Below, one piece after another: positions 7,767 to 53,655 of a DNA stretch of 64,000 nt (within the stretch, counting starts at the first letter, position 1; each line of letters starts with the position of its first letter). This stretch comes from Pedobacter sp. (GTDB taxonomy: Bacteria; Desulfobacterota; Desulfuromonadia; Desulfuromonadales; Syntrophotaleaceae). The position numbers were made by a program, and so were the translations under genes. The notes beneath the pieces were generated by a model that worked only from the letters and a program-made list of their open reading frames with translations, searched no databases and had not been told where the DNA came from. The stretch lies in assembly GCA_050253415.1 (NCBI GenBank), contig JBFWJC010000001.1, positions 904,679 to 968,678 of the forward strand. The letters are read 5' to 3'.

Positions 7767-8273
7767 TCAGTGGCTCATGAATCTTTCGACATGCAACAGA
7801 ATCTTGACCGAATCGCCGGTCTTGCCAATACCCATGATATAACTCTTGGTCCCTCCCATGTCGCCTGACTGAGCTGTTTCGATTTGATCCTGGGCGATGT
7901 TGGCGACTTCGTTAACCTGGTCAACAATCATGCCGGTAGTCTGGTTGTTAACATGGATGACGACGATGCAGGTCCGCTCATCGTAGGCACGCTCCGGTAG
8001 CCCGAAACGGGCGCGGACGTCGACCACCGGGATGATGCGTCCTCGCAGATTAATGACCCCTTTAATGAAGTGCGGCATGTCAGGCACCTTGGTGATCTTT
8101 TGAACGCCGATGATTTCCGTGACGAATTCGATGCCCATGCCGTATTCTTCATCCCCGATCCAAAAAGTGAGGAACTTATCCTTCATGGTGTCTTCGGAAT
8201 CGAACATATCGACGTTGGCTCTATTGGCAGGTGTCTGGAGTATCTGTTCCGCATTCTGTGTGGTATTTTGCAT
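7767..8273 (-). CDS. cheW: Chemotaxis coupling protein CheW
   Basis: KFLTFWIGDEEYG, VPDMPHFIKGVINLRGRIIPVVD, GMIVDQVNEV; ATG 8273 with GAGGGAAG RBS preferred over the upstream TTG, which lies in the riboswitch terminator. Confidence 0.95.
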   Translation of the reverse strand: MQNTTQNAEQILQTPANRANVDMFDSEDTMKDKFLTFWIGDEEYGMGIEFVTEIIGVQKITKVPDMPHFIKGVINLRGRIIPVVDVRARFGLPERAYDERTCIVVIHVNNQTTGMIVDQVNEVANIAQDQIETAQSGDMGGTKSYIMGIGKTGDSVKILLHVERFMSH

Positions 8274-8313
8274 GACTTCCCTCTCTTCCGTGAGAGGCCG
8301 TGTGGCCAGCCTC

Positions 8314-8346
8314 AAATAAAAAATCCACCTTCAAGCCGAAGGTGGA
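8314..8346 (-). terminator. Riboswitch expression-platform terminator upstream of cheW
   Basis: Minus strand TCCACCTTC-GGCTT-GAAGGTGGA followed by TTTTTTATTT. Confidence 0.85.
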
Positions 8347-8396: not shown

Positions 8397-8481
8397 TTTC
8401 TTCGGTAACCTGGCGGCCCGGTCAACCCGGGTCCATGGCTTTGCGTCGCCGGGTCGCCCCGGGTTTGCTTTTATCGGAAAT
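8397..8481 (-). ncRNA. GEMM-I (c-di-GMP-I family) riboswitch, A20 variant (predicted 3',3'-cGAMP binder)
   Basis: Minus strand CGATAAAAGCAAACCCGGG-GCGA-CCCGGCGACGCAAAGCC...CCAGGTTACCGAA matches the GEMM-I consensus (GCAAACC..GNRA..GACGCAAAGC..GGTTACCG); A at the Vc2-G20 equivalent (8469). Confidence 0.9.
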
Positions 8482-20070: not shown

Positions 20071-22164
20071 TCAGGCACTGGGTTCGGATCGATTCCTGAG
20101 TTTGATAATCGGTGCCGGTAAACTGCTGGTCTTTAGATACGCCTGACAATCTTCGGCAGGAATAGGGTAGCTCAGATAGTATCCCTGGCCTATCTGGCAA
20201 CCCCGCTTTTTTAAGAAGACTTTTTGGTATTCCGTTTCGATACCTTCCGCAATAACCCCCAGCTTAAGGGTGTTGGCAAGGGCGATGATGCCCTCTGCCA
20301 GCGCACCATTCTCCTCACCCTGGTTGACTTTGCTAATAAACGAACGGTCGATTTTAAGGCTGTTGATAGGGAAGTTTTCCAGGCAGCTGAGAGACGAATA
20401 ACCGGTACCAAAATCGTCAATCGACAGGCTGATACCAAGAGAGACAAGGCTTTTCATGGTTCGAATGGCCTTTGCCATGTCGAGCATGATGGCCGTTTCG
20501 GTTATTTCGATTTCCAGATATTCCGGTGCAAGCCCGGCTTCGGTGAGAGCGTGGCTTACGACATCGCACAGATCGGCCTGACAAAACTGTTTGGGGGATA
20601 TGTTGACGGCAACTTTGCATGGGGGCAGACCTGCCTTTTGCCATGCCTTGGCCTGTTTGCAGGCGGTGTTTAAAACCCAACGGCCTATCGGCAGGATCAG
20701 ACCGCTTTCTTCGGCTACCGAAATGAATTTTCCCGGAGGGATAAGCCCTAAAGAGGGGTGCTGCCAGCGGAGCAGTGCTTCCATGCCGTGCACCGTATTT
20801 GAAAACAGATCGATCTGTGGCTGATAGTAGAGAATGAATTCACCATTCTGAAGCGCTTTACGCATGCTGTTTTCAAGAAACAATGTCTCTTCGACCTGTT
20901 CATTCATACCGTTGGTGAAGAAGCGGTAGGTATTGCGACCGATTTCCTTGGAGCGGTACATGGCGACGTCGGCACATTTCATCAGGTTTTCCACGCTATC
21001 CCCGTCGTCAGGATAAATGCTGATGCCGATGCTGGTGGTGATAAACAATTCCTGGTCGTTGATGGTAAACGGCTCCGCCATCGAATGGAGGATTTTATCG
21101 GCAACCAGAGATAGAGACCGTGCATCGCGAACCTCTTCGATCACAAGTACAAATTCGTCACCCCCCAGTCTCGCCAGGGTGTCCTCGTTCCGAATCTGAT
21201 CCTTCAGACGGCGGGTAACGAGCTGAAGCACGACGTCGCCGATGTCGTGACCCAGGGTGTCGTTGATATTCTTGAAGCGGTCCAGGTCGAGAAACAGCAG
21301 GCCGACCTTGTTGCCGGAGCGTTGGCCGCGGGATAGAGCGTGGGATAACCGGTCGCGAAACAGCAGGCGGTTAGGCAGGCCCGTCAGGCAGTCATGGTGG
21401 GCCAGATGATCCAGATGTTTGCGCTGGTTGGACAGTTCGTGGTCACGATGTTGAATCTGGGTCAGCATGTTGTTGAAGTTCTCGATCAAAGTTCCCATTT
21501 CATCGATTCTGTTATTAACAATTCTCCTCGAATAATCTTTGTCCTGCGAAACGGAATTCATGGCTGTGGCCAGTTGTTCGACCGGTTTCGAAATAATTTT
21601 CTGGAGTCTTGTGGCAAGCAGAAAGCCGAGCATCGAAGACCCCATGAGACCGAGCAGGCCGAAGGTGGCATAGCGTATCAGTGTTTGACTGATATCGGAA
21701 AGATCCGCTTGTATATAAAGGGTTCCCAATGCCTCGCTTTTGTGTTGCAAGGGGATACATATTTCGAGGGTTTTGCCAAAAACATGGCCCTGCCGAAGCA
21801 GTATTTCAGTTGGTGTGACAGGATAGGCATGGGAGTTGTCGGCTTGGCCATAGTGTGTAAAGGTTTCACCCGTTTTAGCTTTTATCTGGATGAGTAAAAT
21901 CTGTTCTTTTTTAGAAAAATTGTTCAGTGCGTCGCTGATGGCTTGTCTGTCATCAAAAATCAGTGCGGCCGCAAGGTTGCCTGATATATCATTGGCAATG
22001 ATCGTGACTTGCTTGAGGAGGGATTTTCGCAAAAAAGTTCTTTGCGTATAAATCAGTGTAGAAAACAGCAACAGCATTGTAAGCGTGCTGACAATGCCAA
22101 TGATAGAAAGCAGCTTGGCTTTAATGGACAGTTTGTTGATGATTGTCTGTGATATTTTTGTCAT
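20071..22164 (-). CDS. Membrane sensor-HAMP-GGDEF-EAL protein (YfiN-like N-terminus)
   Basis: Two TMs around a periplasmic domain (AAALIFDDRQA), HAMP, RNED I-site + RLGGDEF, EALLRW, DDFGTGYSS. Confidence 0.93.
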   Translation of the reverse strand: MTKISQTIINKLSIKAKLLSIIGIVSTLTMLLLFSTLIYTQRTFLRKSLLKQVTIIANDISGNLAAALIFDDRQAISDALNNFSKKEQILLIQIKAKTGETFTHYGQADNSHAYPVTPTEILLRQGHVFGKTLEICIPLQHKSEALGTLYIQADLSDISQTLIRYATFGLLGLMGSSMLGFLLATRLQKIISKPVEQLATAMNSVSQDKDYSRRIVNNRIDEMGTLIENFNNMLTQIQHRDHELSNQRKHLDHLAHHDCLTGLPNRLLFRDRLSHALSRGQRSGNKVGLLFLDLDRFKNINDTLGHDIGDVVLQLVTRRLKDQIRNEDTLARLGGDEFVLVIEEVRDARSLSLVADKILHSMAEPFTINDQELFITTSIGISIYPDDGDSVENLMKCADVAMYRSKEIGRNTYRFFTNGMNEQVEETLFLENSMRKALQNGEFILYYQPQIDLFSNTVHGMEALLRWQHPSLGLIPPGKFISVAEESGLILPIGRWVLNTACKQAKAWQKAGLPPCKVAVNISPKQFCQADLCDVVSHALTEAGLAPEYLEIEITETAIMLDMAKAIRTMKSLVSLGISLSIDDFGTGYSSLSCLENFPINSLKIDRSFISKVNQGEENGALAEGIIALANTLKLGVIAEGIETEYQKVFLKKRGCQIGQGYYLSYPIPAEDCQAYLKTSSLPAPIIKLRNRSEPSA

Positions 22165-22799
22165 CTTTGCTCCATAACGATGCCATTTTTTATGATAGAC
22201 AAAGACAATCCGAATAGTTTTGAGCTAATATGCAGTCTGTTTTTTGCGGCGTTATCCAGATTTAAGCAGAAATTGACGCGACCTCCTACTTCAACAAAAG
22301 AAACGATCCCACCATTTTTGAAAAAACTGTCATCATCGCTTACGGATAAAATTGGTAACGATTTAGTTAATGATAAGACTTGCTTTGAATGACTCTGTTG
22401 GTTATCCGCGATATAGAGAATCTGGCATTGGTGCATGGCTTGTTGCAGTTCGACCAGGTTCTTTAAAACGAGTACTTCAATAGGTCTGCCAAAATAGGAC
22501 CGTTCTTGCCATTTCATGAGCTCTTTCTGCAGAAGATCTTCACCGAATACGCATACCCTTAAGGCGGTTTTATTGCTATCGAAACTTGTATCAGGCCACT
22601 CGACAAACTGGGCAATACTGTACAGTATCGCAGACTGGACGACTTCTTCCCGGTAGACCGGTTGGCAAACCCCCTGTGCGCCGGACAACAATAACAGGGA
22701 CAGCAAAAGCATGATGACGCCACACGGTTTTTTTAGCCGTATTAACGACCGAAACCGGTTGGGTGGTGCCATTATCGAATTTTCTGGAAGAATCCCCAT
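22161..22799 (-). CDS. YfiR/HmsC family (DUF4154) periplasmic protein
   Basis: Signal-like segment, AILYSIAQFVEWP, VCVFG, CQILYI, GGIVSF..GGRVNF..NL..A...L.ISSKL; overlaps downstream gene by 4 bp; start uncertain. Confidence 0.85.
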   Translation of the reverse strand: MGILPENSIMAPPNRFRSLIRLKKPCGVIMLLLSLLLLSGAQGVCQPVYREEVVQSAILYSIAQFVEWPDTSFDSNKTALRVCVFGEDLLQKELMKWQERSYFGRPIEVLVLKNLVELQQAMHQCQILYIADNQQSHSKQVLSLTKSLPILSVSDDDSFFKNGGIVSFVEVGGRVNFCLNLDNAAKNRLHISSKLFGLSLSIIKNGIVMEQR

Positions 22800-22865
22800 A
22801 GTCTGGAATCACTAAAAATTTAGGCGAAGGGATTATTAATTCCCTTCACGTCGTAAGTGGATCCG

Positions 22866-24932
22866 CTATTTAAACCGACCCGTTAATTGCGCATAAAAAC
22901 CTCTTGCCACCCCGGTGCTGATGGCTGTAGTCGAGGTGAATTCCTGGCGATTGTCATCCAAAAGATTCTGTCCGACGATGGCCAGTTCCAGCGATGAATT
23001 CAACTGTAATGCCACCCGCAGATCCAGGGTGTGATAGCTCGGTATGTCCAGTTCCGGGAGGCTGTCGACATAACGCCACCAGGCGTCCAGTTCGACCCTT
23101 TCGCCGATATTCCATTTGGATAGAACCGATACCTGATGCTGCGGGCTGAATCCTTCATCGGTTTCAAAGGACTCTGCTCCGCTTGAATGATCGATATGCA
23201 ACGCCATTTGCAGATAGCTGTAGGATGTTTTGAGTTGCCACCACGGAAGGGGGGTATAGTCGACAGCGACTTCGATGCCGTAGGTTTCGCCGGAGCCCTG
23301 GTTTTCGGCGCTTAAGGGGACAATGAAGTATAATTGGGGGAAAGTTCCTGTCTGGATGGGTGTTTGAGGTTCGTAGGTGATCAGACTGTCGTAATCGTTG
23401 TAAAAGGCTGTGATATCCAGGTTGAACCACCGCTTCGGCTGATAACGAAAGCCGATCTCATAAGCGATGAGATCTTCGGAGTCTGCATCCTCATCCCCTC
23501 TTAAGGAATAATACGAAGTTACAGGTCCTGTGGCTGATACCCCGAAATTGATTTGGGAGTCGTGATCAAGTCTTGAAGGGGTACGCACGGCACGCGATAC
23601 CGCTGCCCAGATGGAATAGGGGATGGAAGGGGTCCAGATGATGCGGGCGTTCGGTTGGGCTTCCAGGCCTGTATACCCATTGTGCTCAAATTTCGATCCG
23701 ACAATGAACGTCAGTCGATCCTGGATGAGCATGACGTTGTCCTGCAGAAACAGACTGTAAAGACTGTCGGCGCGACTGTCGGGATCGCCGCTTACGGTAA
23801 AGCTGTCGTCGATGCTGTCGCGGGTATAGCGATAGCCCGCGCCCCACACCAGCGTATGGCGTTCCCCCAGGTTGAACTGGTGCTGAAAGTCGAAGTCCAG
23901 GGTGTCGCGTTTTTCGTTGAAAGCCATATCCTTGCGTTTGGTGCCGTCATAGTAGAATTGCGCTGAAAAATTGGACGTTTCGGATAGCGTGTGTTGCCAG
24001 CGCAGCAACACATTCTGGCCGGAAAATTCGCTGTCGCCGACGGTGTTGAGGCTGTAGGGTGCTTCAATCAGGCTCATAGGCCGAACGGAGCCGGACGAAC
24101 CGCTATACGCGTCGCCTTGCAGGGTTACCTGGTCGTCGTCCGGATCGCCCCACTCGGCCCGAAAGCCCCCCCGAAAAGATCGCCAGTCATCGGCGGCGTC
24201 TTCACCGAAAAGGCTCTGACCTGTATCGCGATCAAAATATTTGGCATAGATACGGTAAAACCCCTGGTCGCCGAAGGTGCCGCCGTAACGAATCCTGCCG
24301 AAGCCACGCTCCTCGGAACCGCTCCCGCCGGCTATCAGCAGGCCCTGCGTATCTTTGGCGGATTTGGTCATGATGTTGATGACGCCGTTGACGGCATTAG
24401 CGCCCCACAGGGTGCCGCCCGGGCCGCGAATGACTTCGATGCGGTCCACGTCTTCCAGCATGACATCCTGGACATCCCAGAAAACTCCGGCAAACAGTGG
24501 GGTGTAGACGGTCCGTCCGTCGATCATGACCAGCATTTTGTTGGCAAACGCTTCGTTGAAGCCCCGGCAGGTGATGGCCCATTTATTACCGTCGATACGG
24601 GCGACCTGCAGGCCTGGAACCATACGCAGGGCTTCCGGAATACTGGTGGCACCGGAATGCCGGATATCTTCACTGGTTACCACATAGATGGCAGCAGCGG
24701 CCTGGCTGATTTTTTGAGGCATTCTGGCGGCACTTGTGACCTCGATATTGACCAGATCCTCCAGGCTCAATGCCATGACTTCCTCGGTGGTTGCTGCCGC
24801 CGCAGGCATCACAGATGAGACCATAATGAAAAAAATACTCCCCAGGACCGCAATAATCAGGAGCCTGTTGGCGATGCCGATTGGTGGTGGTGCTAAAAGC
24901 ATGCAGCTACGGTTTTTGATGCCTGCTTTCAT
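22866..24932 (-). CDS. TonB-dependent outer membrane receptor
   Basis: LSLEDLVNIEVTSAAR, plug motifs (EALRMVPG, IEVIRGPGGTLWGANAVNGVINI), C-terminal barrel strand. Confidence 0.93.
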   Translation of the reverse strand: MKAGIKNRSCMLLAPPPIGIANRLLIIAVLGSIFFIMVSSVMPAAAATTEEVMALSLEDLVNIEVTSAARMPQKISQAAAAIYVVTSEDIRHSGATSIPEALRMVPGLQVARIDGNKWAITCRGFNEAFANKMLVMIDGRTVYTPLFAGVFWDVQDVMLEDVDRIEVIRGPGGTLWGANAVNGVINIMTKSAKDTQGLLIAGGSGSEERGFGRIRYGGTFGDQGFYRIYAKYFDRDTGQSLFGEDAADDWRSFRGGFRAEWGDPDDDQVTLQGDAYSGSSGSVRPMSLIEAPYSLNTVGDSEFSGQNVLLRWQHTLSETSNFSAQFYYDGTKRKDMAFNEKRDTLDFDFQHQFNLGERHTLVWGAGYRYTRDSIDDSFTVSGDPDSRADSLYSLFLQDNVMLIQDRLTFIVGSKFEHNGYTGLEAQPNARIIWTPSIPYSIWAAVSRAVRTPSRLDHDSQINFGVSATGPVTSYYSLRGDEDADSEDLIAYEIGFRYQPKRWFNLDITAFYNDYDSLITYEPQTPIQTGTFPQLYFIVPLSAENQGSGETYGIEVAVDYTPLPWWQLKTSYSYLQMALHIDHSSGAESFETDEGFSPQHQVSVLSKWNIGERVELDAWWRYVDSLPELDIPSYHTLDLRVALQLNSSLELAIVGQNLLDDNRQEFTSTTAISTGVARGFYAQLTGRFK

Positions 24933-24944
24933 GGGTTCTCTCCC

Positions 24945-24977
24945 AAATAAAAAAACCCGTTCCGAAAGGGAACAGGG
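24945..24977 (-). terminator. Riboswitch expression-platform terminator upstream of TonB receptor
   Basis: Minus strand CCCTGTTCCC-TTTC-GGAACGGG followed by TTTTTTTATTT, about 12 nt before the ATG. Confidence 0.8.
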
Positions 24978-25016
24978 CGCAGTGGGCCTGCATCGGCCAC
25001 ATACATTAGGGCTCCC

Positions 25017-25100
25017 CCTCTTTCTGCAGCTCGGCCATCCGCTCAGACGGATCCGTAGCTTTGCGCCATCAAATTGCTTTGACTTTGCTTTTTCCAGAGG
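25017..25100 (-). ncRNA. GEMM-I riboswitch, A20 variant
   Basis: Minus strand CCTCTGGAAAAAGCAAAGTCAAA-GCAA-TTTGATGGCGCAAAGCTACGGATCCG..CGGATGGCCGAGCTGCAGAAAGAGG: P1 CCTCT/AGAGG, GNRA-capped P2, GCAAA/GCGCAAAGC core; A before G21-C22 (25089). Confidence 0.82.
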
Positions 25101-25107
25101 TTTTATC

Positions 25108-25135
25108 AGGTTATCGGTGAAATGATGCCTGTCAA
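25108..25135 (-). promoter_or_regulatory. Sigma70-type promoter driving riboswitch/TonB operon
   Basis: TTGACA-N16-TAACCT; predicted start site falls at the 5' end of riboswitch P1. Confidence 0.6.
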
Positions 25136-25244: not shown

Positions 25245-26507
25245 TCAACGGGGTCGGTAGTCGGGGTGGGCGAAAGAGTAGGAAAATTCCATGTGGTCGG
25301 CGTAGCTTCCGTCGAGAATGGCAGCGACGTCTTCTATGAATACCTGTTCTTCATCGGTCGGAATGACGAAGACCTTTATGGGGGATGTATCGCTTGAGAT
25401 GAGCACTTCTTTGCTGCCTGCCAGTTCACGGTTGCGTTGTTCATCGAGATAAATGCCGACATGCTCCAGGTTTTGCAGCGCCATGTGCCGGATCAGGGCG
25501 GAACGCTCCCCGACTCCGGCGGTAAAAACCACGGCATCGAGCGGACCGATCGCTGCCAGGTAGGCGCCAATGTATTTGCGCAACCGGTAACTCTCGATTT
25601 CCAGGCAGAGCTGGCAACGGGGATCGCCGTTTTGTGCCGCCGAGATGACATCCCGCCGGTCGGTGTAACGCCCTGTTATACCCAATACGCCGCTCTTTTT
25701 GTTGAGCAGGTTATCCATTTCATCCGAGGAGAGGTTTTCCATCTTCATCATGAAATGCGGGATGGCCGGGTCGATATCGCCGCAGCGCGTCCCCATTACG
25801 GCGCCTTCCAGGGGGGTGAGACCCATGCTGGTGTCGATGGAGATGCCGTTGCGGATGGCGCAGTGGGAGACGCCGTTGCCGATGTGCATGGTGATCAGAT
25901 TGCAGTCACGGGCATGCTTGCCGAGCAGGGCCGCCGCACGTTTCGATACATAGAGGTGGGAGGTGCCATGAAACCCGTAACGTCGAACCCGGTAATGTTC
26001 GTACCATTCGTAGGGCAGGGCGTAAATATAAGCATGTCTGGGCATGGTCTGGTGAAAGGCCGTATCAAAAATGGCAACGCCTGGCACTGTGGGCAGGGCT
26101 GCGCGTACCGCCTCGATACCGGCGATGTTGGGCGGGTTATGCAGGGGCGCAAGGTGCTGAACCTCGCGGATGGTTGCCAGAACCTCATCATCGATACGTA
26201 CCGATCGGGTGAATTTTTCACCGCCATGTACCACGCGGTGGCCAACGGCTGAAATGGCATCGATGTTGTCGATGACCGCCTCCCCGCCTTCGGTCAGTGT
26301 CCGCAGGATCAGGCCGATGGCGGTGTGATGGTCGGGGCATTCCTGTTCCAGCCGGTAGTCTTCTCTGCCGGGGACATTATGGATAATGAAAGAGCCCCCG
26401 ACGATGACCCGTTCGACACCTCCTTTGGCAAGAATTTTTTGGTTGGTCCAATCAAAGAGATTGTATTTGACCGATGAACTGCCGCAGTTCAGTGCCAGTA
26501 TGATCAC
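25245..26507 (-). CDS. ackA: Acetate kinase
   Basis: LNCGSSSVK, GHRVVHGG, APLHNP, YGFHGTSH, TSMGLTPLEG, FTAGVGE, PTDEE. Confidence 0.97.
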   Translation of the reverse strand: MIILALNCGSSSVKYNLFDWTNQKILAKGGVERVIVGGSFIIHNVPGREDYRLEQECPDHHTAIGLILRTLTEGGEAVIDNIDAISAVGHRVVHGGEKFTRSVRIDDEVLATIREVQHLAPLHNPPNIAGIEAVRAALPTVPGVAIFDTAFHQTMPRHAYIYALPYEWYEHYRVRRYGFHGTSHLYVSKRAAALLGKHARDCNLITMHIGNGVSHCAIRNGISIDTSMGLTPLEGAVMGTRCGDIDPAIPHFMMKMENLSSDEMDNLLNKKSGVLGITGRYTDRRDVISAAQNGDPRCQLCLEIESYRLRKYIGAYLAAIGPLDAVVFTAGVGERSALIRHMALQNLEHVGIYLDEQRNRELAGSKEVLISSDTSPIKVFVIPTDEEQVFIEDVAAILDGSYADHMEFSYSFAHPDYRPR

Positions 26508-51271: not shown

Positions 51272-51358
51272 ATGTGATCGATAATAGCAAAGCCGGGGTA
51301 ACTCGGTGACGCAAAACTGCGGGTCCCGATTGGGATAGCCGGGTTGCCGAAATCATAT
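51272..51358 (+). ncRNA. GEMM-I riboswitch, A20 variant (predicted 3',3'-cGAMP binder)
   Basis: CGATAATAGCAAAGCCGGG-GTAA-CTCGGTGACGCAAAACTGCGGGTCCC..GGGATAGCCGGGTTGCCGAAATCAT; P1 ATGTGAT/ATCATAT; A20 equivalent at 51286. Confidence 0.92.
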
Positions 51359-51564: not shown

Positions 51565-53655
51565 ATGAAGTTGCGCACGCAATTGTTAATGCCGACGCTA
51601 GCGGTAATTATCCTGTGTCTGTCCGTTTCGGGTTTCGTGACCTACCGGATCGCCAAAAATGCCTTGCAGGAGGCGTTGCAGGGGCAAATGATTTTGGCAA
51701 CGGAGAGCGTGCGGGATCAGATCAACGGCTATATCGGTGAACTGACCCGGACCTTCAAAACCTTGACCGGGCGCAATGTGGTGCAGCAGGTGCTTGCCGA
51801 TAACGCCGACGCCAGCGCCGGCCAGGCTGCTGAGCTGGTTTTACGAAAAATGTTGGCGGATTACCCGGATCAGTTTGAGTTCCTGGCGGTTATCGGACTG
51901 GACGGTATGGCCAAGGCGGCTTCGGATGGCAACCTGGTCGGGACCTTGAATGTGCGTGATCGTGGCTATTTCCAAAGTGCTTTGTCGGGGAAAACCGGAA
52001 CCGAAATTGTGCAGAGCCGCGCCAGCGGCCAACCGGTTATGATTCTGTCTTATCCCGTGAGCGTCGATGGCCGGGTGGCTGGTGCCTGCATCGGGGCCAT
52101 TCAAATGAGTTATTTTGCCAACCATTTCGTAAGTCCGGTGCGCATCGGACAGAAGGGTTACGCCTACCTTGTGGATGACACCGGAACGTTTCTTGCCCAT
52201 CCGGAAAAATCCAAGGTATTCAATGCCTCCATTGCCGATTCCGACTGGGGCAAACAGATGCTCGCCGAAAAAAACGGTTTTCTCGTCTATGCATGGGAAG
52301 GTCAGGAAAAGGTCATAGCGTTTCGCCATATCGATGAGGCTGGTTGGCAGGTGGCAGCCGGAGCTGAGTATAAAGATATTTTTGCGCCCCTTTCAGGTAT
52401 CCTGCAGGGCAATATATGGGCTGCGGTTCTGACCCTGCTGGGTGTATCCTTGGTCCTTTTCATGGTTGTTCGCTCGATTGTGAAAGCGGTTCGTGCCGGC
52501 GTGGATCTGGCTATGGATATCCGTGCCGGAGATGTCAGTCGTCGTTTGCACTTCAAGCGTGGAGATGAGATCGGCGAGCTGGCCGGTGCTCTCGACCAGA
52601 TGGCGCAAGGGCTTGAAGAAAAAGCTCTGTTGGCGGAAAAAGTTGCGGGGGGCGATCTTACGGTTGATATTCACATGGCCTCGGATCGGGACCGCCTCGG
52701 TATCAGTCTCACGCAGATGGTGCGGCGACTCAGCGATATGATGGCTCAGGTGCAGTCGGCAAGCGAGCAGATCGCGGCCGGTTCGCTGCAGGTGGCGGAC
52801 GGCAGTCAGACCTTGTCCCAAGGCGCCACGGAGTCGGCAGCCAGCCTGGAGGAGATCTCCGCATCGATGATGCAGCTCGCGTCCCAGACCCGCTCAAATG
52901 CCGAGAATGCCAAACAGGCCAATATGCTGACCGGCGAAGCCCAGGCCGCTGGTCAGGAAGGCGACCGCCAGATGGAGACATTGATTGCCGCCATGCGGGA
53001 TATTAATCATTCGTCCGACAGTATCACCAAGATCATCAAGGTCATTGACGAGATTGCCTTTCAAACCAACCTGCTGGCCTTGAATGCGGCGGTCGAGGCG
53101 GCACGGGCCGGACAGCATGGCAAGGGGTTTGCGGTGGTGGCCGAAGAGGTGCGAAATCTGGCGGCACGGAGCGCCAAGGCCGCCAAGGAAACGGCGGAAC
53201 TTATAGAGGATTCCACGGTTAAAACCGTTCGTGGTGTGGAAATTGCCGACAGGACCGCAGTGTCCCTGAAAACGATTGTTACGGGTACGGCCAAGGTCTC
53301 GGATCTGGTTGCGGAGATTGCCGCAGCCTCGCAGGAGCAATCAGCTGGCATTGATCAGGTCAGCAAAGGCCTTGATCAGATTGAGACAGTTACGCAGCAG
53401 GCGACGGCCAATGCCGAAGAGAGCGCCGCTGCCGCCGAGGAACTGTCGGGACAGGCGGATCACTTACGACGCCTGCTTGCCGTATTCAAGGTCAAGGGAG
53501 GGCAAAAGCCGGTTGCTGTCAGCGATCAAAGGCCAAAAATCCAACCTGCGGTCAATCTGTCTGTGAAGCCTCGTCAACTCCAGGTGGCTGCTGCAACCGA
53601 GCGTCGCCCGGAGCAAATCATCGCTCTCGATGATGCGGATATGGGCCGATACTAA
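51565..53655 (+). CDS. Methyl-accepting chemotaxis protein (dCache) with C-terminal pentapeptide-like tail
   Basis: TM-Cache-[26 protein letters not shown], ends [11 protein letters not shown]. Confidence 0.97.

Follow-up and report, generated by a model that had tools for sequence, protein, structure and literature searches.

A 64,000-nucleotide stretch of Pedobacter sp. DNA (assembly GCA_050253415.1, contig JBFWJC010000001.1, positions 904,679 to 968,678 of the forward strand), assigned by GTDB to the Syntrophotaleaceae within the Desulfuromonadales and hereafter called the window, carries on its minus strand an operon of three genes, which encode a TonB-dependent receptor (TBDR), a YfiR-like periplasmic protein and a CHASE8-HAMP-GGDEF-EAL protein and are preceded by a leader with a GEMM-I aptamer. 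With somewhat better than even confidence, this operon is regarded as a riboswitch-gated copy of a widespread TBDR/YfiR-like/CHASE8 trio, with cyclic dimeric GMP (c-di-GMP) as its output. The trio itself is very common and has already been catalogued; the new element is that a YfiN-like GGDEF-EAL output is combined on it with a GEMM-Ib-like leader. The operon consists of the following elements, all on the minus strand:

20071-25135, minus strand: whole operon with its leader, an extent that agrees with the preliminary description of this DNA
25108..25135, minus strand: promoter-like site, -35 TTGACA at 25135..25130, 16-nt spacer, -10 TAACCT at 25113..25108
25022..25099, minus strand: GEMM-I aptamer (c-di-GMP-I, RF01051) with A at the G20 position, from an Rfam match
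24964..25020, minus strand: predicted antiterminator, GAGGGGGAGC at 25020..25011 with GUUCCCUUUC at 24973..24964, from constrained and unconstrained ViennaRNA folds
24949..24981, minus strand: intrinsic terminator, stem 24976..24956 plus T7 tail, from a hairpin scan (8 pairs, 5 G-C, loop 5, TTTTTTTATT)
22866..24932, minus strand: TBDR of 688 amino acids (aa), TOL_0244 family, from the open reading frame (ORF), Pfam and NCBIfam
22824..22849, minus strand: hairpin resembling a terminator, with a weak T tail, located between the receptor and yfiR-like genes (9 pairs, 5 G-C, loop 8, tail CTAAATTTTT)
22161..22799, minus strand: YfiR-like periplasmic protein of 212 aa (DUF4154), from the ORF and Pfam (E 1.5e-34)
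20071..22164, minus strand: inner-membrane CHASE8-HAMP-GGDEF-EAL protein of 697 aa, from the ORF and Pfam

The GEMM-I aptamer with A20, the terminator, the three genes and the 4-bp overlap listed in the preliminary description are borne out by Rfam, the hairpin scan, the ORFs and Pfam, and the identities given there for the three proteins (TBDR, YfiR-like protein and YfiN-like sensor) are upheld by Pfam. The terminator ends 24 nt 5' of the receptor ATG at 24932. The yfiR-like and sensor genes share the ATGA of their 4-bp overlap (22164..22161), and the gap of 66 nt between the receptor gene and the yfiR-like gene contains the hairpin at 22824..22849, which is possibly a partial stop or an RNA-stabilising hairpin. 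This hairpin could make the expression of the two downstream genes lower than that of the receptor gene.

Conservation of the three-gene arrangement

The neighbourhood survey of DUF4154 genes beside TonB receptors that had been suggested in the preliminary description was carried out within the window's own order and across phyla, and the arrangement recurs in both. For the order, 40 related genomes were searched with the YfiR-like protein; 18 gave a match, among them only one of the six from the window's genus. From 16 of the matching genomes 20 loci were taken (two genomes with very short contigs were omitted), and these carry 22 DUF4154 genes, whose 44 neighbours were classed by Pfam. A TBDR gene lies directly upstream in 17 of the 22 cases (including a gene truncated at a contig end and a fragment) and a CHASE8 sensor gene directly downstream in 18. 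These 18 sensors comprise nine CHASE8-HAMP-GGDEF-EAL proteins, seven histidine kinases and two that are cut.

For the survey across phyla, an alignment of 15 receptors from the order was compared with contigs representing one genome per species. At least 588 stretches encode relatives of the receptor, and the best 80 loci were parsed with profiles built from the own-order set. According to their record titles, these 80 come from Acidobacteriota, Planctomycetota, Verrucomicrobiota, Nitrospirota, Nitrospinaceae, Gamma-, Beta- and Alphaproteobacteria, Deltaproteobacteria/Thermodesulfobacteriota, Bacteroidota, Gemmatimonadales, Spirochaetales, Deferribacteres and others. The gene orders were distributed as follows:

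TBDR, YfiR-like protein, CHASE8 module: 53 of 80 loci
TBDR, YfiR-like protein, contig end: 3 of 80 loci
TBDR, YfiR-like protein, other gene: 2 of 80 loci
no YfiR-like gene directly after the receptor gene: 13 of 80 loci
contig ends at the receptor gene: 9 of 80 loci

Thus, a YfiR-like gene directly follows the receptor gene in 58 of the 71 informative loci, and such strong conservation of the order of TBDR, YfiR-like and CHASE8 genes speaks for a functional connection of the receptor with the YfiR-like protein. Ten of the 80 loci have two to four tandem receptor paralogues followed by one YfiR-sensor pair (L038, L048, L059, L062, L065, L066, L070, L072, L077 and L097). At another locus, L003, two cassettes stand in a row, and a third receptor gene comes after the second cassette.

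The output module is the part in which the window differs from most of these loci. Pfam was applied to 30 of the 53 cross-phylum sensors; all 30 are histidine kinases, none has a GGDEF domain and 29 have a CHASE8 match. A GGDEF profile built for this purpose likewise found no GGDEF domain in any of 39 cleanly parsed triples. GGDEF-EAL output has thus been seen only in the window's own order and, because the cross-phylum sensors scanned were all kinases without GGDEF, it is a lineage variant. In a quick, midpoint-rooted tree of the sensor N-termini, eight of ten GGDEF-EAL rows, including that of the window, cluster together (Shimodaira-Hasegawa-like approximate likelihood ratio test, SH-aLRT, 91), and the output label needs two changes.

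All three families of the trio have models in NCBIfam release 20.0:

NF053590: TOL_0244 family TonB-dependent receptor
NF053591: TOL_0243 family YfiR-like periplasmic protein
NF053592: sensor histidine kinase, YfiR-like protein-associated

These curated models cover exactly this trio, and the wiring can therefore not be called unknown, as the preliminary description had done in stating that no characterised system of this kind was known. No experimental study of the trio was found in the literature searched, a search whose coverage excluded subscription journals. Among 56 aligned YfiR-like proteins, 24 from other cassettes were compared with NCBIfam; NF053591 is the best family for all 24, and 17 of them reach its cut-off. 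For YfiR-like proteins linked to GGDEF-EAL sensors, the cut-off is reached by three of seven.

Within the genus the operon is patchy, with an orthologue (88-89% DNA identity) in one of the six congeners searched. In a related draft genome, a 457-aa ORF (L012:4107-5480, plus strand) combines a Plug domain (84-194) with DUF4154 (299-444) without a barrel between them, and the next gene encodes a CHASE8-GGDEF-EAL protein. This ORF could have arisen by deletion or by misassembly. A metagenomic protein of 551 aa (P0035) has DUF4154 fused to HisKA-HATPase-REC, linking YfiR-like domains to kinases.

Properties of the encoded proteins

The third protein of the operon has GGDEF-EAL as its output, and Pfam finds neither HisKA nor HATPase in it. 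Residues 13-406 match the DgcN/YfiN model NF007423 over profile positions 3-390 of 390 with 304.2 bits (cut-off 325), and the remainder matches phosphodiesterase families of NCBIfam. The first 238 residues match NF053592 at positions 1-222 of 223 with 141.9 bits (cut-off 194). Inspection by eye identified RLGGDEF in the GGDEF half, with an RxxD I-site (RNED) five residues ahead of it, and an intact EAL half with EALLR, DDFGTGYSS, KID and EGIE; these motifs are taken here to be the catalytic ones of GGDEF and EAL domains. Judged by them, both halves look catalytically competent. The base-reading position is occupied by Asp (GHDIGD), as in canonical enzymes and not as in Hypr enzymes: at the position of GacA Ser348 the protein has Asp instead of Ser.

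The YfiR-like protein has a hydrophobic signal segment at its N-terminus. Its best NCBIfam family is NF053591 (104.4 bits, under the cut-off of 125), and with the YfiR equivalog it scores 48.6, below the cut-off of 85. By sequence it matches the PDB chains of Pseudomonas aeruginosa YfiR with an E-value of about 6e-4; in this alignment, Cys71/Cys110 of YfiR are kept as C83/C125, and the second Cys pair of YfiR is lost. A model based on the alignment of 56 sequences has a mean predicted local distance difference test score (pLDDT) of 89.2. In a Foldseek search with this model, every one of the 12 top-ranked chains shown is a YfiR entry, and the top ten have a probability of 1.00 and template modelling (TM) scores by target of 0.76-0.83; the matches that follow YfiR, at ranks 16-21, are substrate-binding proteins. 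The fold of YfiR has been described as resembling type I periplasmic binding domains (PMC4655355). Across the YfiR-like proteins of the cassettes, the best-conserved stretch is C-terminal (F..NL...ISSKL). According to PMC4655355, it is the C-terminal region of YfiR that binds YfiB and, as judged from mutation data, probably YfiN.

The receptor has a signal peptide, a Plug domain (76-184) and a TonB_dep_Rec barrel (219-657), and it passes the cut-off of NF053590 (703.4 bits versus 645, profile positions 2-604 of 604). Its nearest solved structure is the colicin I receptor CirA (E 1e-20). By our own reading, about 30 residues separate the predicted signal peptide from the plug, and an N-terminal signalling (STN) domain is lacking, as Pfam gives Plug and barrel only. 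The N-terminus carries a TonB-box-like motif, LSLEDLVNIEVTS, which is conserved in the alignment of the receptor family. Three TonB_C genes of the genome exceed the Pfam cut-off.

The leader as a predicted cyclic dinucleotide riboswitch

The aptamer matches Rfam RF01051 at 25099..25022 with 59.3 bits over model positions 1-87 (gathering score 35; E 4.7e-9 for the 64-kb window), and all 21 mapped consensus pairs are standard pairs. An A is aligned to the conserved G immediately 5' of GCAAA. This column presumably corresponds to position G20 of the Vc2 aptamer. It fits PMC6140456, in which cyclic GMP-AMP (cGAMP) riboswitches are described as having A in place of G20. In the same source, Vc2 RNA with the G20A exchange binds both c-di-GMP (53 nM) and cGAMP (120 nM), and bispecific examples exist among natural A-type aptamers. 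A at position 20 is therefore no proof of selectivity for cGAMP, and the aptamer is predicted to be GEMM-Ib-like, that is, of the cGAMP type or bispecific.

The genome contains eight GEMM-I aptamers with A at the G20 position in five, including all three in the window, and G in three; judging from these sequences, A- and G-type aptamers are kept apart. It also encodes, outside the window, one REC-GGDEF protein with Ser in combination with GGDEF (GHLDGS, RYGGDEF; G000:C1:1357453-1358880, minus strand, locus L106); among 55 GGDEF-like ORFs, no other one with a GGDEF motif carries Ser at the base-reading position. The Ser/GGDEF combination has been described as defining Hypr cGAMP synthases (PMC6456294, PMC8835794). 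Because an A-type aptamer, a Hypr-like REC-GGDEF protein and coexisting A- and G-types are found together, a cGAMP input to the leader is plausible. The label of a predicted cGAMP riboswitch in the preliminary description is made plausible by these three features, and the implied selectivity goes beyond what A20 can prove. A further ORF (C4:232877-234241) has GYQSGS and no GGDEF motif.

Of the A-type aptamers, one precedes genes for a GGDEF and a GGDEF-EAL protein, and the other four precede a PAS-GGDEF-EAL gene, the window operon, the gene for a methyl-accepting chemotaxis protein (MCP) and a CheW gene; the genes behind the G-type aptamers encode two PAS-GGDEF-EAL proteins and one Calx-beta/Ig surface protein. 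Genes for c-di-GMP enzymes accordingly lie behind five of eight aptamers (three of five A-type, two of three G-type), and the placing of dinucleotide riboswitches ahead of dinucleotide enzymes seems to be a habit of this genome.

Two alternative folds of the leader were obtained with ViennaRNA. In fold A (-50.0 kcal/mol), the aptamer is kept and 25020..25011 pairs with 24973..24964, which blocks the terminator; this antiterminator takes in the 5' arm of the terminator together with its loop and can coexist with the folded aptamer. In fold B (-54.2 kcal/mol), the free optimum, GGCGCA of the aptamer core (25067..25062) pairs with UGCGCC (24981..24976) and the terminator forms. A ligand that locks the aptamer should favour the terminator-blocking fold A in this model, and the leader should therefore be an ON switch. 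In agreement with this, PMC6456294 describes for Geobacter sulfurreducens that transcripts downstream of GEMM-Ib riboswitches fall upon deletion of gacA.

Transcription would begin at about the first aptamer base if it started from the promoter-like site. The promoter named in the preliminary description is upheld with regard to its -35 hexamer, which is perfect. The -10 hexamer TAACCT, also read by eye, is weak with three of six matches, and the site is absent from the list of a consensus promoter scan, which requires at least four of six matches per hexamer.

Comparison with known systems

The operon shares with the NCBIfam trio the three families and their order on one strand, and it differs in having a GGDEF-EAL output instead of a kinase and a GEMM-I riboswitch ahead of the genes. 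Physiological information on the trio comes from Thalassolituus oleivorans: PMC6304351 describes the TOL_0244 protein as sevenfold more abundant on the n-C28 alkane and proposes a role in alkane uptake by likeness to OmpS of Alcanivorax. PA1613-PA1612-PA1611 of P. aeruginosa may be such a trio, and it is not used as evidence here. PA1612-PA1611 have been described as an operon adjoining PA1613 (PMC3462791).

Owing to its output, a YfiN-like cyclase rather than a kinase, the window copy comes closest to the well-studied YfiBNR system. In YfiBNR of P. aeruginosa and Escherichia coli (with YfiN also called TpbB or DgcN) and in HmsCDE of Yersinia pestis, a gene for a YfiR-fold protein also lies beside a gene for a CHASE8-HAMP-GGDEF enzyme, and one of the Cys pairs is kept in the YfiR-like protein of the window. 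In contrast to these systems, a TBDR gene of the 22-strand type takes the place of the OmpA/Pal-like lipoprotein YfiB in the operon, an EAL domain is added and the other Cys pair of YfiR is missing; the scores for YfiR (48.6 versus 85) and DgcN (304.2 versus 325) are below the equivalog cut-offs. In agreement with the preliminary description, in which the receptor replaces YfiB, no YfiB (HmsE)-like gene is present in the three-gene operon or its flanks, which was the part of the genome searched. These flanks are, according to Pfam, an acetate kinase gene upstream on the same strand (26507..25245) and a convergent folE2 gene downstream. Established YfiBNR assays, such as c-di-GMP read-outs and YfiR titration, might be transferred to this operon to probe the role of the receptor. 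The riboswitch offers a second handle, as expression should follow a cyclic dinucleotide.

The leader resembles the GEMM-Ib leader of Geobacter pgcA (Gs1761) in its GEMM-I fold with A for G20 followed by an intrinsic terminator and in the presence of a Hypr-type GGDEF protein in the genome. It differs in its cargo, which here is a sensor cassette with a c-di-GMP enzyme as its last product; the GEMM-Ib regulon of Geobacter consists of cytochrome, pilus and polysaccharide genes according to PMC6456294. Unlike FecA in FecA-FecR-FecI transducers, the receptor of the window has no N-terminal signalling domain, genes for an anti-sigma factor or an extracytoplasmic function (ECF) sigma factor do not adjoin it, and the middle partner is a soluble YfiR-like protein.

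Proposed mode of action and alternative explanations

From the parts and their order, the following mode of action is inferred. The transcript would begin near 25100, and the A-type aptamer would have 3',3'-cGAMP as its ligand, or else accept both cGAMP and c-di-GMP. Once folded, the aptamer would hold its GGCGCA core off UGCGCC so that the antiterminator persists and read-through occurs, giving an ON response like that of the Geobacter GEMM-Ib leaders. The three products would be distributed over the envelope as an outer-membrane receptor, a periplasmic YfiR-like protein and an inner-membrane GGDEF-EAL protein whose CHASE8 domain faces the periplasm. As in YfiBNR, the YfiR-like protein would bind CHASE8 and thereby tune the balance of cyclase and phosphodiesterase activities. 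The state of the receptor, either ligand-loaded or energised by TonB, would alter the amount of free YfiR-like protein, either by capture of this protein or by import of a compound to which it binds. Overall, cGAMP would determine whether an envelope sensor is made that in turn adjusts c-di-GMP. This would be a case of a cGAMP-type riboswitch controlling c-di-GMP enzymes.

Several observations weigh against this reading. When the aptamer is forced, the terminator fold (-52.1 kcal/mol) still beats the antiterminator fold (-50.0 kcal/mol) by about 2 kcal/mol; an ON switch would thus have to come from kinetics and ligand energy, which lie outside these folds. Moreover, no GEMM-I aptamer was found upstream of other cassettes: Rfam gave no match in 14 of the 20 related loci, and a loose motif screen over loci totalling 986 kb, which was the only screen for the remaining six and all later loci and which recovered eight of eight true GEMM-I sites in the window's genome, found none upstream of any receptor gene. 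The linkage of riboswitch and trio is therefore without comparative support. The sole orthologous operon in the genus begins inside the receptor gene at a contig end, so that its leader is lost; a riboswitch on another small contig of that congener does not match the window leader, and YfiR-like relatives from metagenomes, at 20 loci, are all only 24-36% identical. With regard to the genes, the hairpin with its weak T tail between the receptor gene and the yfiR-like gene means that equal co-transcription is not assured, and both the YfiR-like protein (104.4 versus 125) and the sensor module (141.9 versus 194) fall under the NCBIfam cut-offs. In 13 of the 71 informative loci no YfiR gene directly follows the receptor gene; three of these have a YfiR-CHASE8 pair further along or on the opposite strand, and in nine of the other ten the downstream genes are unrelated according to Pfam. 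Family receptors without an adjoining YfiR gene also have the N-terminal motif, here of the form LSLEELxxxEVTS. The preliminary description had pointed to this N-terminal region for a contact with YfiR, and LSLEDLVNIEVTS was considered as a YfiR dock; it is ruled out as specific evidence, since orphan receptors have it too. For the same reason, the motif is a feature of the family, probably its TonB box region, and not a dock for YfiR.

A joint fold of YfiR and receptor, likewise suggested in the preliminary description, was calculated for the mature receptor (47-688) and the mature YfiR-like protein (44-212), with alignments built for this analysis. The predicted complex has a median score of 0.42 compared with 0.00 for the best of three controls, the runs share at least 61% of their contacts, and the partner has a pLDDT of at least 82. 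The mark used is reached by 116 of 157 solved complexes and by two of 215 mismatched pairs; scores of up to 0.60 among those passing belong to only 18 of the 157 solved complexes and to both mismatches, and the score of 0.42 therefore lies, as a further point on the opposing side, in a band where a pass is likelier to be false than true, except for pairs whose interaction was already probable. Direct capture of the YfiR-like protein by the receptor thus finds weak support in the model. The relay from an external ligand over receptor and YfiR to the c-di-GMP enzyme, as put forward in the preliminary description, is in line with the conserved gene order, and it is its capture step that the modelling favours only weakly.

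The ligand could also be relayed without any capture. The receptor would then be an ordinary importer, and the YfiR-like protein would bind the imported compound and thereby change its hold on CHASE8 without contact to the receptor. The likeness of YfiR to type I periplasmic binding domains (PMC4655355), the substrate-binding proteins that follow YfiR among the structural matches, the existence of orphan receptors and the weak complex prediction all fit this explanation, and two to four tandem receptors per YfiR-sensor pair fit several importers that feed one periplasmic sensor. The difference of the predicted complex from all three controls speaks against it, and the order of receptor and YfiR genes is expected equally in both cases and does not discriminate; overall, relay by import alone is considered unlikely. 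The other point at which the proposed mode of action may be replaced is the ligand of the riboswitch. If c-di-GMP or both dinucleotides were sensed rather than cGAMP alone, the operon would be a homeostatic c-di-GMP feedback loop without a bridge between messengers. The dual binding by Vc2 G20A and the bispecificity of some natural A-type aptamers (PMC6140456) are consistent with this, and G-type aptamers also precede GGDEF-EAL genes in two of three cases, so that control of such enzymes needs no cGAMP. Against it stand the maintenance of five A and three G variants in a genome with a Hypr-like synthase and the selectivity of the A-type pgcA aptamer of Geobacter, given as about 1200-fold for cGAMP in PMC6456294, and such a feedback loop appears somewhat unlikely.

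It is very doubtful, in comparison, that the receptor has no signalling role and is a transport target or simply a neighbour, with the YfiR-like protein and the sensor acting as a YfiRN/HmsCD-type sensor of redox or envelope stress by means of the Cys pair. HmsC and YfiR respond to the periplasmic redox state (PMC8846402, PMC4655355), the pair equivalent to Cys71/Cys110 is kept and a hairpin separates the receptor gene from yfiR. However, the receptor gene lies directly upstream of the YfiR-like gene in many phyla and within the order (the 58 of 71 and 17 of 22 cases given above) far more often than expected for a passenger, and the NCBI curators define the receptor family jointly with the other two. 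The most far-reaching version of the proposed mode of action is a true signalling receptor that captures the YfiR-like protein at its periplasmic face upon ligand binding or TonB action and thus frees the CHASE8 enzyme, with a cGAMP ON switch gating this relay and c-di-GMP feeding back on cGAMP synthesis through the I-site of the Hypr cyclase; it is judged decidedly unlikely. If true, TonB-dependent trans-envelope signalling would have a third kind, present across many phyla, and the cGAMP and c-di-GMP networks would be coupled to an outside cue.

Further GEMM-I aptamers

The two other A-type aptamers of the window precede genes related to chemotaxis. One (51276-51351, plus strand, 62.9 bits) is separated by about 210 nt from a downstream dCache-HAMP-MCP gene (51565-53655, plus strand), and the other (8401-8479, minus strand, 58.8 bits) is located directly upstream of a CheW gene (7767-8315, minus strand), which is followed by two ORFs without a Pfam family. 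Elsewhere in the genome, contig C5 has two A-type aptamers ahead of GGDEF and GGDEF-EAL genes, and two divergent G-type aptamers (G000:C3:126282-126359, minus strand, and C3:127856-127934, plus strand) each lead into a PAS-GGDEF-EAL gene. GEMM-I aptamers were also found in all five congeners searched, with 4-12 in each.

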